Virus record (IMG/VR): IMGVR_UViG_3300049811_000333
Coordinates: 16,633 to 80,632 of that record
DNA: 64,000 bases
Source of the DNA: a virus
Reading direction: 5' to 3' (one strand)
Part shown: piece by piece, positions 21,877 through 25,844 of the stretch
How the letters are laid out: each line of letters opens with the position of its first letter
How positions within the stretch are numbered: position 1 is the first letter of the stretch
Translations under genes and position numbers: made by a program
Notes under the pieces: model-generated
What the model was told of the DNA's origin: nothing
Seen by the model: the letters and a program-made list of their open reading frames with translations, nothing else
Database searches by the model: none

Positions 21877-22862
21877 GACGCGGAACCGGATGGAACACGC
21901 GGTCGCCGGGGATGTAGGCGGGGGTGGGGGCGAGGCGCCAGAACTTGATGCGCCAGCGTCCGATGGCGAGAGTGTGAAGCCCGCCGATGCGAGTGTGCTT
22001 AAACATAGCTAAGCCTCCGCAAGAGGCGCACACCCTACGTGTGCGCCCGTCGCGAGGGCCGCGCTGTGGTGGTTTGCCAAGAGACGCGCCGTCCGGTCGT
22101 GCACCTAAGCACCGATCACCCCTGCCTCCCAAAGTCAGACGGGCAGGCCGTCGCGGGACTTACCGCCTTGGCAAATTGTTTTTCGCGAGGGCTTCCGGGG
22201 TTTGGACCCCCGGAGCCGCCCGGATCACGCGAGAGAGGAACCGGCGAGCATGGCCTTGGATTGGAGGTCGATACCCCGGACGAGGCTGTCGTATTCCTCC
22301 CGCGAGATGAGGCCGTCCATGTACCGCTCATCGAGGCGGTCCATCTGGCGTTCAACCCAGAGTTCGACGAGGTGTTCGCGCATGGCAATAACTCCCGAAA
22401 GGTGAGCGCGAGAGGCGCCCACGTCGCGAGAGTCGGTCAGGTCGCGAGAGTTGGCCCCCTCCGGGGTCTCAATCCGGAGGGGCGCGAGATCAGAGTTGTC
22501 GCGAGGCGATGTAGTCCGCCGTCTCCAGGTTAAGGCTCTGGATCAGGCTGGGGTCGCCATCGTCGGGGGAAAATTCGAGGTCAATCAGCTTGGCGAGGTC
22601 GTCCCCATGGATGCGCTGGGCATACATGAAGGTCTCGGCCGATTTGTAGTCGGCGAACTCCTGGAAGTCGCCCGTGATCCCCCGAGGGGTGACATGGACG
22701 ACCGAGACATGGTAAGGCATGGGTGTGCTCCACATGATGCGCGCCCGTAGTGGGCGCGCACGACGTGAGGCGCACGCGCGCGTAGTGGGACCCGAGGCGC
22801 CGAGGTGCCGCCGGGAAAATTCGGATTTGTCGATTTTCAGAACCCGGAAGTTCCGGGCACCG

Positions 22863-22990
22863 ATCACTTTTCCGTGATGATGCGGCGCACAAAACGTCCA
22901 CGGACTATTGTGCGGCGCACACTCCGGGCACGGATCACTTTCTCGTGATGCTGCGATGCACGCTCCGAACCCGGATCACATTCCCGTGAT
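22863..22990. repeat. three ATCAC-N6-GTGAT inverted repeats (further copies at 24179 and 25382)
   Basis: 22863-22878, 22934-22949, 22975-22990. Confidence 0.75.
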
Positions 22991-23048
22991 CCGTGAACGC
23001 AACATTGTGCAACGCAATCTCGCGGTTGCGTTGTACGATGCAGCGCAC

Positions 23049-23079
23049 AAAAAAAAACGGGCGGCCCGAAAGCCGCCCG
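23049..23079 (-). terminator. intrinsic terminator
   Basis: CGGGCGGC-N6-GCCGCCCG hairpin with A9 on + strand (U tract on minus). Confidence 0.85.
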
Positions 23080-23099
23080 CCCGATACTCCCGGCCCGGA

Positions 23100-23360
23100 T
23101 TAAATCCCGGCCACGTAAATCGGGCACCGTTTCCCGATGCCCCGATGGTAGGCCACGGCCACGTCCAACCCGTGGTGAACGTCCGGATAGGGTATGGCCG
23201 GACCCTGCCCAATGGCCACGGTCAGGCATCGGGCCGACTGCCCGCGCATTAGTCGGTCATGCGCCTCCGCCTTCATGGCGGCCCGCCGCGCATAAAAGTC
23301 CCGGGCAACGGCCCGGATAGCGGCCATACGTTCCTGCTTCTGTTCCGGTGTCATGGTCAA
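23100..23360 (-). CDS. hypothetical early protein
   Basis: GGAGG RBS; ends just before terminator. Confidence 0.55.
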   Translation of the reverse strand: MTMTPEQKQERMAAIRAVARDFYARRAAMKAEAHDRLMRGQSARCLTVAIGQGPAIPYPDVHHGLDVAVAYHRGIGKRCPIYVAGI

Positions 23361-24055
23361 AGATCCTCCAATGCCAAAATCCCGGCCGATAGGTCGGTTT
23401 TGATTTCGTTCGCCTTCAATCGCAACGTGCCGATTGTCTTTGGCCTGACCGATTGCTTAACCGGACGCGGTCCGGCCGCCTTCCGGGCGGCTTCAATCTT
23501 CGCCCGGGTCTCGGCCTTAAGTCCGGCCTTCCGGATACGTTCGATTGCCCGCGCTTCCTGGCGTCCGGCCAATGCCGCCGCCCGGAACAGCTTGCGCCGC
23601 GCCTTGGCTATCGCCTTGGCGGCGGCTTTCGCCTTCCGGCCATGGACGATCCGGACCGGGGTAACGGTCCGGGTAAAAACATTCAACGTGTCGGCGGCCC
23701 GATAGGCCTTGCCGACAAACCCGTCCGTAATCTGATCTTTCTTGATTGGTTTCGGCCGGGACGGTCTCTTAACTATGACCCGCCCGCCCTCAATCCGGAC
23801 CGGCTCCCGGTTCACTAACCGGCCATCCGCGTTCACATAGCATCCACCGTGAACATTACCTTCACGGCCCGTTTGCGGGTTCACGCCACCGGACGCGGCG
23901 TGCCGCGTCATGTGCCGGACTTCCCACGGGATGCCGTTTTGATTGGTTGCGGTTCGCACCTCCTGGACCGTTTCCCGGAACAGTTGGCTGTTATGCCATC
24001 CCGTTACGGTCCCGGCCCTCCGGTTGCGCCGCGCTTGCCTGTTGTGGCTCGCCAT
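23357..24055 (-). CDS. highly basic hypothetical early protein
   Basis: AAAGGGA RBS; Arg/Lys/Ala-rich C-terminal half. Confidence 0.55.
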   Translation of the reverse strand: MASHNRQARRNRRAGTVTGWHNSQLFRETVQEVRTATNQNGIPWEVRHMTRHAASGGVNPQTGREGNVHGGCYVNADGRLVNREPVRIEGGRVIVKRPSRPKPIKKDQITDGFVGKAYRAADTLNVFTRTVTPVRIVHGRKAKAAAKAIAKARRKLFRAAALAGRQEARAIERIRKAGLKAETRAKIEAARKAAGPRPVKQSVRPKTIGTLRLKANEIKTDLSAGILALEDL

Positions 24056-24344
24056 TGCGTTCCCTTTCCTGGGTTTATCGGCTGACCCGGTGCTAGCCCG
24101 GATCGGTCCGCCGCCGCCCATGACCGGGCGACAAAATGAATAGTACGCTTTCCGTTGATACCGCTCTAATCACGTGAAATCACGAACTCGTGATGTTGTT
24201 TTCGTTTGGTTTTTCGCCGTTTGAACCGTGTTCGCCCCATATCCGTGTGCGTCCTTGTGATCGCTTTCCTTGATAAATGCACGTCTTGCACTTGCAACAA
24301 ATACCTGGGCACCTGTCAATCCTTACACTGACGATTGACCTAGC

Positions 24345-24368
24345 AAAAAGCCCGGGCGAACCGGGCTT
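24345..24368 (-). terminator. intrinsic terminator
   Basis: AAGCCCGG-GCGAA-CCGGGCTT with A5 on + strand. Confidence 0.75.
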
Positions 24369-24373
24369 GATGC

Positions 24374-24679
24374 CTATGGCAATGGCGGCGGTGGGGCTTC
24401 ATTCCATGTGTTGCCCCGGGCAACGGCCATGTTCCACCGCCAGGATACCCGGGCTTGCTCCCGTTCCCGGCCCGTGGCCGTGGCCATCCACCGCCGGGCA
24501 TCGCCCGCTTGATCCAGTGCCCGGGCATACTGTGAACGGGCCGCAATCTTCAACGCTGCGCTAATGCCATCGGCATCGCTGAACAGCGCCAGCACTTCCG
24601 GCCGCCCGGAATTTATCATCCGCATACGTTCACGGTCTCGGATCGTATCGGCCGCCGACTTCATGTTATATCGTAACAT
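24374..24679 (-). CDS. hypothetical early protein
   Basis: AGGAGG RBS; promoter TTGAAG-N17-TATATA upstream (24711-24739). Confidence 0.6.
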   Translation of the reverse strand: MLRYNMKSAADTIRDRERMRMINSGRPEVLALFSDADGISAALKIAARSQYARALDQAGDARRWMATATGREREQARVSWRWNMAVARGNTWNEAPPPPLP

Positions 24680-25844
24680 TGCTTTGCCTCCTGTGATTTG
24701 CTGCACCCTGTATATACGCCTCTTTATACCCGCCTTCAATCCCGTACAGAATTACCGCCCAAAATAGCCGCCCGGTGTCATCCTACCCGGGATAGCTGCG
24801 CCGGCCCTAATCCAATCCCCCCGGCCACGTCCAACCCCTATCCAGTCGCCCACGGCCCGGAACCCGGAACAGACTCCCGCCCTATGGGATGCAATAGGGA
24901 ATGGTCAGGATACGGACGAACCCGCCCCAACTGCCTATCATCCGTGTGCCTCGGAATTGTGTAACAGTTGTGGGGGGATTGTTCGCCGACCCTCTATCCC
25001 CCGCCCCACAAAGCAAACGCCTCCCGCTTCCGCTCCCCTCTCTCGCCGCCCTAGTCCGGGTTCGCGACTATCGCCGGACGGGCGCCAACCCGGTCCGGCC
25101 CTCTCTATTGTTTATTTTTTTTGTCTGATTTGTTTGGCTCGGATCGGTCTCAATCCCTGACTGTCACCTATCCCCATGGTCCGGACTTGCTACCTGGTAT
25201 CATCCGTGTGCTCCGGACGTACCATGCCCATCCGCCTACATGATTGTCTGATGTCTGATTATTCTTTTACTTGTCAATAGCTTAGTTCTACTGTGAACCC
25301 TGACTTATGTCTGTTCTGTGAACTCTGATTACTTCAATCTATTGAAATCGTTGGGGATTATTATTCTCTGTTCACATCTGGATCACAGAAACGTGATCGT
25401 GTTCATGGTTTGTTCGCGTGACGCATACGGAAATTCAGGGTGCGGACGGCATCAGTGCCACCCCCACAACACAATCCTCATAAGAGCACTTGCACTTGCA
25501 ACAGGAGTGTCCGGGCTTGTTGCCATTCGTCGGGCATGAGGATGCTATATCCGACGTTTGGTATCATACCCCCTACCCTTTTTTCTCAGGGATGGGTCCC
25601 TCTTTTACGGGTTCTTCCTTTTCACGAGCCCGCTGCCTCGCGGCTCGACAGCTGCTGCACATGCAGGGACCTGAGTCAGGGAGCTCAGACGAGTAGTGGC
25701 CCATTAGGGGTGTCCTTTTTCTGGTGGGATGGGTCCCCCGGTAGGGGCCTGTTAGGGACCCATCGGGAAATTCTATCAGTGTACCCCGGTATATCAATTG
25801 GACGGTCCGGGTCCCCCTCCCCATGTATACCCCAGGAGGTACCC

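Follow-up and report, generated by a model that had tools for sequence, protein, structure and literature searches.

Why should one strand of a phage genome be written for almost 2.7 kb without a single copy of one trinucleotide? The question is raised by the window analysed here, a stretch of 64,000 nt comprising positions 16633-80632 of one 80,632-nt contig (IMG/VR virus record IMGVR_UViG_3300049811_000333), in which an initial annotation made by eye had reported that GAG is missing from the + strand over 22805-25483 (coordinates are window positions unless marked as genome positions). Direct counting upholds the claim, including the positions of the flanking copies. The 2679-nt interval, hereafter the tract, contains no + strand GAG, the nearest copies lie at 22802-22804 and 25484-25486, and the second-largest GAG gap after this one of 2682 nt is 594 nt long, in the window and in the whole genome alike. 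In the literature searched we found no publication on a phage tract from which one strand has lost a trinucleotide. What the data favour is selection on the nucleic acid itself, acting on one strand and tied to a control module, and some factor appears to read a very short word on that strand.

The GAG gap and the wider loss of AG

Scaling from the remaining genome predicts 53.9 copies of GAG in the interval and local base composition predicts 30.6, in keeping with the tens of copies estimated earlier. A first-order Markov model of the interval itself, the kind of strand-specific background that the initial annotation had suggested, still predicts 9.6, and zero GAG was obtained in none of 3000 simulations (Poisson P0 = 6.5e-5). 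Under an exponential gap model the log10 expected number of such GAG gaps is -18.3, the most extreme value of all 2-4-mers genome-wide; the runner-up, CAAG, scores -8.7 and falls at the same location, and among those of the fetched related loci that are at least 8 kb long, no 2-4-mer gap scores below -7.1. CAAG is missing from the + strand over 22078-26987, a wider desert of 4.9 kb that encloses the tract, and GAAG has a 3.0-kb gap from 22847 on. CTC does occur freely on the + strand of the interval, as had been said (36 copies). Earlier remarks that the interval is rich in CCGG and poor in TCGA are correct as counts (60 and 2) but not as anomalies, the Markov expectations being 55.2 and 4.1; a protein-binding array was considered as the source of the CCGG excess and rejected, as the copies lack periodicity and follow from the abundance of CGG and CCG (CGG arginine codons).

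The loss of GAG is the peak of a broader depletion of the dinucleotide AG on the same strand. The + strand of the tract holds 40 AG where 120 are expected (0.33); VAG is reduced to 24 from an expected 91.5 and TAG to 16 from 28.7, with GAG and AAG the two most depleted NAG words, and AGC, AGT and CAG are also down two- to three-fold, with GGA up (1.41). Every 4-mer containing GAG is absent, whatever its flanks. The depletion runs through all three genes and all three non-coding stretches of the tract (AG observed/expected 4/17.9, 6/12.6, 7/27.2, 4/14.6, 4/13.8 and 15/32.9), whereas the other 24 intergenic stretches of the genome have ratios of about 0.75 to 1.6 and none is depleted like the tract. 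Both borders are sharp: the AG ratio is 1.27 before and 0.27 after about 22800, and 0.51 before and 1.10 after about 25450. Since the loss is equally strong in non-coding DNA and in all reading frames, it belongs to the nucleic-acid level and not to the codon level, which agrees with the earlier view that codon usage alone is an insufficient explanation.

In the three small genes of the tract, all on the minus strand and here called gA, gB and gC, the loss is achieved by synonymous recoding together with a low content of leucine and serine. Taking as the null the same amino-acid sequences written with the genome’s own codon usage, their coding strand has no CTC where 19.6 are expected and 17 CT where 54 are expected. 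None of the 21 leucine codons is CTC, the codon used for 48% of leucines in the genome, and 11 of the 21 are TTG or TTA; NCT codons for alanine, serine, proline and threonine number 1 of 123, where about 16 are expected from the summed genome codon fractions; leucine (5.0%) and serine (3.1%) are both scarce. Other codons shift too, CGC falling from 53% to 7% and CGG rising from 23% to 63%, with C-ending codons generally reduced. The CGC and CGG shifts are not explained by CT avoidance and therefore leave room for a compositional component; with the genes’ own codon usage only about 2.7 CTC would be expected in the coding part.

Architecture of the tract and its counterpart in a relative

On the best reading the tract is one architectural unit of a temperate-type siphophage, consisting of a leader, the genes gC-gB-gA, a terminator and, under control of palindromes, the promoter region of the operon that follows leftward, with five ATCAC-N6-GTGAT palindromes that frame and cross it. 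Taken in the direction of transcription, a predicted sigma-70-like leftward promoter (25797-25770, TTGATA-16-TAGAAT with TG) lies outside the right border, which is marked by CTTGCACTTGCAACA at 25489-25503, repeated exactly at 24285-24299. An 801-nt non-coding leader on the minus strand (24683-25483) carries ATCCGTGTGC three times, TCTGAT five times and CTGTGAAC repeats, with an AT-rich stretch at 25100-25400 where GC falls to 0.40-0.45; its RNA is predicted to fold better from the minus strand (z = -2.6) than from the plus strand (z = -0.8), with only 20 shuffles for each. A search of the tract against Rfam gave no match. The genes gC (24374-24679, with AGGAGG 7 nt before the ATG), gB (23357-24055) and gA (23100-23354, with GGAGG before the ATG) follow, each preceded by a good Shine-Dalgarno sequence, and just after gA a terminator-like hairpin on the same strand (23046-23082) has a 12-bp stem with 8 G-C pairs and then TTTTTTTTT, a T9 run. 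Three perfect palindromes (22863, 22934 and 22975, together spanning 22863-22990) lie upstream of the leftward gene 22490-22720, a fourth (24179-24194) lies between gC and gB, and a fifth (25382-25397) is near the right border. All five perfect copies in the window are thus inside the tract, where 1.6 would be expected window-wide, and there are none elsewhere in the genome.

The region between promoter and tract has its own repeats. GATGGGTCCC occurs twice within the two copies of a 24-nt direct repeat (25577-25600 and 25714-25737), and once inverted (GGGACCCATC, 25755-25764), which could form a 10-bp stem at the 5' end of the conserved promoter’s transcript; GGGTCCC words are present in the relative described below as well.

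No family, solved relative or fold match was obtained for gA, gB or gC from Pfam, PHROGs, a PDB sequence search, ESM Atlas, AF2 and Foldseek. The 101-residue gC is predicted to be all-helical (AF2 mean pLDDT 68), and the 84-residue gA to have a long N-terminal helix followed by an unmodelled tail (mean pLDDT 57). The orphan gB (232 residues, ESM Atlas model pLDDT 0.49) combines a conserved arginine-rich N-terminus, MASHNRQARRNRRA, with a basic low-complexity region rich in Ala, Lys and Arg. Among 1.84 billion representative proteins it has two true homologues (P0002 and P0004), a third match being to the low-complexity region only; the alignment has codon-sized gaps, and the arginine-rich N-terminus is common to the homologues. 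A metagenome scan for the DNA of P0002 and P0004 gave no match, and a scan of viral contigs for gC gave one spurious locus only.

A search for relatives with the portal, TerL, one flanking gene and a conserved 15-mer as queries gave a single close relative that spans the locus, IMG/VR contig 3300037458_000426 (L003/L109, hereafter L003), whose portal is 83% identical. Bosa-type Xanthomonas phages were set aside because their genome layout differs, and the region had no DNA match among 50,697 phage records. At the locus L003 lacks homologues of gA, gB and gC and shows no DNA similarity to the tract, the only conserved DNA segment nearby being the leftward promoter. Despite these different genes, the GAG-poor property is present in weaker form at the syntenic place. 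L003 has seven ATCAC-N6-GTGAT copies there (four perfect, three with one mismatch) together with short shared motifs, and the right-border words, as read from the sequence, are similar (CATCAGTGCCACC in the window, CATCAGAGCCACC in L003). Measured from that word the L003 zone is 2503 nt long, compared with 2679 nt in the window, and, like the tract, it stops where the next leftward operon begins under palindrome control. It contains 10 GAG where 29.8 are expected, about 4 per kb compared with 18-20 per kb in both flanks (Markov-1 P 0.026), so that the comparison with a related phage proposed by the initial annotation yields a three-fold depletion at the same place. A homologue of the window gene 21574-21876 lies inside the L003 zone and there has 8 CT and no CTC, with Leu replaced by Met, Val or Phe in the signal peptide; the copy in the window is located outside the desert and has 23 CT and 9 CTC. 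That this gene carries the bias only when inside the zone supports a place-bound effect, and we infer that selection at this locus keeps it AG-poor. In L003 the next leftward operon opens with a gene (544-798, minus strand) that encodes a hydrophobic N-terminus and a Lys/Ala/Pro-rich basic tail, a low-complexity region of the same kind as that of gB.

Candidate readers of the missing word

As the + strand is the template for the tract genes, it is their sense RNA, and equally the non-template DNA strand, that lacks CUC/CTC and is poor in CU/CT. We rank first, though tentatively, selection against CUC or CU in the leftward transcripts by a candidate short-motif RNase. The reader would be a single-strand factor acting on leftward transcripts, for example an endoribonuclease with a preference for CUC or CU, akin to mRNA interferases or anticodon nucleases and encoded by host or phage, and a separately controlled CUC-free unit might stay immune while other messages are cut. 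The absence of CTC from the minus strand extends across all three genes and 1.4 kb of non-coding sequence, as in nuclease-resistant transcripts, and an RNA target is favoured because it makes one-strandedness natural, includes the untranslated parts and accords with the better folding of the leader on the minus strand. There is precedent in transcripts without ACA, which escape MazF (PMC5408214), and in the diverse trinucleotide specificities of MazF homologues (PMC13107127).

Several observations weigh against an RNase. We identified no CUC-specific RNase or toxin in the phage, nor any in the literature searched. The desert starts about 280 nt downstream of the likely start site of the conserved promoter and extends some 240 nt beyond the predicted terminator and across the palindrome cluster, where the AG depletion is strongest of all (2 where 13.9 are expected). 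On the + strand of the tract CT is also mildly low (0.69), with GA and TC normal. L003, a single relative, is depleted in patches, two small genes at about 1300-2000 not being purged, and its gene 1936-2232, considered as a second recoded gene, does not reach significance (P = 0.18).

Judged by the predicted promoter and terminator, the borders of the depletion indeed fit a zone of DNA better than a transcript, since depletion takes in the palindrome and promoter region past the terminator but leaves out the first 280 nt downstream of the promoter. A strand-specific reader of about 3 nt acting on DNA, selecting against + strand GAG/AG or minus-strand CTC/CT, is accordingly nearly as likely as one acting on RNA, and it is with low confidence that we place the RNA reader above it. 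The candidates would be a nickase of the Nt.CviQII type (which cuts R^AG), a primase initiating at CTN, or an enzyme that modifies single-stranded DNA on the exposed non-template strand. A zone of DNA is consistent with the like length of the two regions (2.68 and 2.50 kb), with depletion of the double-stranded AG/CT step on both strands over 22800-24800, and with the left border, which coincides with the global maximum of cumulative GC skew of the 80.6-kb genome (window 22857, genome 39489); that maximum is not at the orientation switch at 28.9 kb. The phage also encodes a Prim-Pol and a DnaB. However, a scan of about 50 of its proteins found no nickase or methyltransferase, no grounds are known on which priming or nicking would have to be kept out of a single internal zone of 2.7 kb, and although bacterial DnaG primases start at CTG/CTA-type triplets, CTG and CTA are the least depleted CTN words of the minus strand. 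Two related ideas were rejected: a replication origin in the tract, which has no initiator gene and lies 20-27 kb from the DnaB and Prim-Pol genes, and thymidine hypermodification or a phage methyltransferase, for which the same scan found no genes.

An explanation that needs no reader of GAG is possible but weaker. The tract could be a mosaic accessory module of odd composition, its zero GAG being the tail of that composition. The pyrimidine-rich + strand, the preference for CGG, TTG, GAA and CAA codons, the codon shifts that go beyond CT avoidance, the small number of CTC expected from the genes’ own codon usage, the orphan status of gB, the many one-way repeats of which the non-coding DNA is built, and the gene turnover seen at the locus in L003 all speak for such a module. 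The question is then merely moved to the donor, however, where a one-strand loss of AG in genes and non-coding DNA alike still needs a process. Moreover, GAG is absent even given the depletion of AG, as the Markov test shows, the palindromes and the GAG-poor state are common to L003 despite its different genes, and the homologue of 21574-21876 is biased only when inside the zone.

We consider it unlikely that the object of selection is instead the opposite RNA. In this proposal rightward transcripts without Shine-Dalgarno-like words, C-rich and G-poor, would be untranslatable and quickly terminated by Rho, so that the + strand forms a barrier. The counts of GGAG, GAGG, AAGG and AGGA are 0, 0, 0 and 2 on the + strand of the tract compared with 14, 13, 15 and 11 on the minus strand, the + strand is 33% C and 25% G, and three + strand terminator-like hairpins lie inside the zone. 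Yet AGC, AGT and CAG, which do not resemble Shine-Dalgarno sequences, are among the depleted words and GGA is enriched; all other mRNAs of the phage are C-rich as well, and no rightward promoter was identified.

A related extension of the RNase hypothesis, which we regard as equally unlikely, would join the CUC-free unit to two neighbours as one system, as all three involve one word on one RNA strand. GAG reaches its highest density in the genome (36-42 per kb) immediately left of the desert, where there is an array of 17 CGCGAG copies on the + strand (20655-22505), mostly followed by R and G. The copies are distributed over the three frames as 7/6/4 and rise in density toward the desert border, with 14 of the genome’s 41 copies in the 2-kb bin that abuts the desert; three of them (22407, 22425 and 22443) are spaced at exactly 18 nt within or close to an intergenic gap. 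Another 2.5 kb or so to the left lie three tRNA-Glu-like RNAs on the minus strand (19734-19811, 19819-19896 and 20174-20249) with encoded CCA ends and long anticodon-arm stems, whose 4-nt loops, GCUC, UCUC and UCUC, present CUC; ARAGORN calls two of the three, each with a two-base anticodon ‘ct’. Array and tRNA mimics might soak up a CUC-recognising factor, such as a host anticodon nuclease aimed at tRNA-Glu(CUC), while the unit needed first would be written without CUC. No CGCGAG array is present in L003, whose contig ends there.

The model of the initial annotation, in which first-entering DNA was purged in one orientation against Type III, Type ISP, BREX or DarT-like enzymes, has still less to recommend it, although the one-strand selection that it assumed does fit the data. 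Gene calls based on third-position GC place the tract inside a long minus-strand arm that spans roughly 28836-4578, at a distance of 3.4-6.1 kb to the left of terS (starting at 28910) and terL (29310) and not at the point where the arms diverge. If packaging were to start near terS and proceed rightward, the last-packaged DNA would lie left of terS and the tract would be removed from that end by 4-7.5% of the genome length; GAG is nevertheless not purged from the 3.4 kb that separate tract and terS. The last 200 nt of the contig (genome 80433-80632) repeat positions ~25-224 with one mismatch, an overlap of the kind given by circular-type assembly, so the contig ends are not physical ends, and the gene set is that of a temperate-type phage (a CI-like repressor with HTH and S24 peptidase domains, RecT, a PDDEXK exonuclease, SSB, DnaB, Prim-Pol and, by a weak match, an integrase). 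Nor is there a purge of restriction sites, six-base palindromes numbering 31 where 37.2 are expected and CCGG and TCGA following composition. Type III, Type ISP and BREX systems read sites of 5-7 nt, avoidance of which cannot erase a bare trinucleotide, and what is missing here is every GAG, whatever its flanks, within a general loss of AG, and not a 5-7-nt site in one orientation. DarT2 has the motif TNTC and DarT1 a reported preference for G-N-G (PMC11543638). TNTC is not depleted (19 where 21.2 are expected on the minus strand, 48 where 50.5 are expected on the + strand), nor are the other GNG words (GCG 44, GGG 40, GTG 44). Avoidance of CRISPR type I-E PAMs (AAG, AGG, GAG and ATG), which should lower all of them on both strands, was also rejected, ATG occurring 39 times on the + strand (observed/expected 1.36) together with the complements CTT (50), CCT (52) and CTC (36).

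Least probable of all is strand-asymmetric mutation at AG/CT by damage or deamination of an exposed strand: the GC skew of the zone (-0.13) is indeed reversed relative to the direction of transcription, and CCAG (4), CTGG (6) and CCGG (60) add up to 70, close to the 64 found elsewhere in the genome, but no product dinucleotide rises to match (AG falls by 112, GG is also down and AA is up by only 21), the borders are sharp, the amino-acid composition is shifted too, and we know of no mutagen with such a 3'-neighbour context.

Some features of the surroundings may be recorded here. The small leftward genes beside terS include an AdoMet-decarboxylase-like gene (27888-28310, minus strand; Pfam AdoMet_dc E = 2.4e-10, phrog_3125). 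A small rightward gene (25845-26120), convergent with the leftward operon 28836-26117, encodes a signal-peptide or secreted protein and has AGGAGG 5 nt before its ATG; its start region is conserved in L003, and the minus-strand ORF 25685-26116 that overlaps it looks spurious. GANTC is rare genome-wide (about 2.3 per 2.68 kb, where a rough composition estimate gives about 9), and distant TerL matches are found in Methyloligella and Rhizobium genomes (prophage matches); together these hint at an alphaproteobacterial host with CcrM-type methylation.

Relation to known systems

The tract belongs with the word-avoidance islands, a class already known. Its nearest likeness is to the ACA-less mRNAs that withstand MazF (PMC5408214): in both, the sense strand of an entire unit lacks a 3-nt word, untranslated parts included, and the one-stranded loss is brought about by synonymous recoding. 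The tract differs in that no CUC-specific nuclease has been found for it and its borders appear to lie off the predicted transcript ends, and the natural ACA-less cases described are individual genes or engineered messages, whereas the tract is a phage module of 2.7 kb. The first-step-transfer region of T5, and T7 with its one-orientation EcoP15I sites, likewise show local or orientation-specific word avoidance, probably owed to a directional reader of DNA; unlike this first-entering DNA, the tract has lost a bare trinucleotide and kept its palindromes, is internal as far as can be told, and lies in a phage of the temperate type.

In architecture the closest parallel is the immunity region of lambda, OL/PL - rexB rexA cI - OR/PR, with about 2.4 kb between the operator clusters. 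Both are units of about 2.5 kb framed by clusters of repressor-type palindromes, in which leftward genes and a terminator are followed by the operator-controlled promoter of the next leftward operon, and the arginine-rich N-terminus of gB is of the same kind as that of N-type antiterminators, although a lambda boxB-like hairpin proposed to go with it was unconvincing on inspection. The tract nonetheless has no homology to cI, rex, N or cro, the CI-like S24 repressor of the phage is 28 kb away, and we know of no word-free property of the lambda region. In the size of the word the parallel is with the frequent-cutting nickases of chlorella viruses, Nt.CviQII (R^AG) and Nt.CviPII (^CCD), which read 3 nt on one strand. 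RAG covers both GAG and AAG, the two most depleted NAG words of the tract; these are, however, enzymes of eukaryotic viruses, protection from them is by methylation and not by avoidance, and no homologue was found in the phage.

Word avoidance in phages is normally put down to restriction sites 4-8 bp long. What has been erased here is a bare trinucleotide, and the erasure spans one strand of a whole control module, its genes, leader and operator region alike. If selection is indeed the cause, no known bacterial defence or phage enzyme fits, and something in the cell or in the phage would have to read some three bases on one strand and act with enough force to recode proteins.

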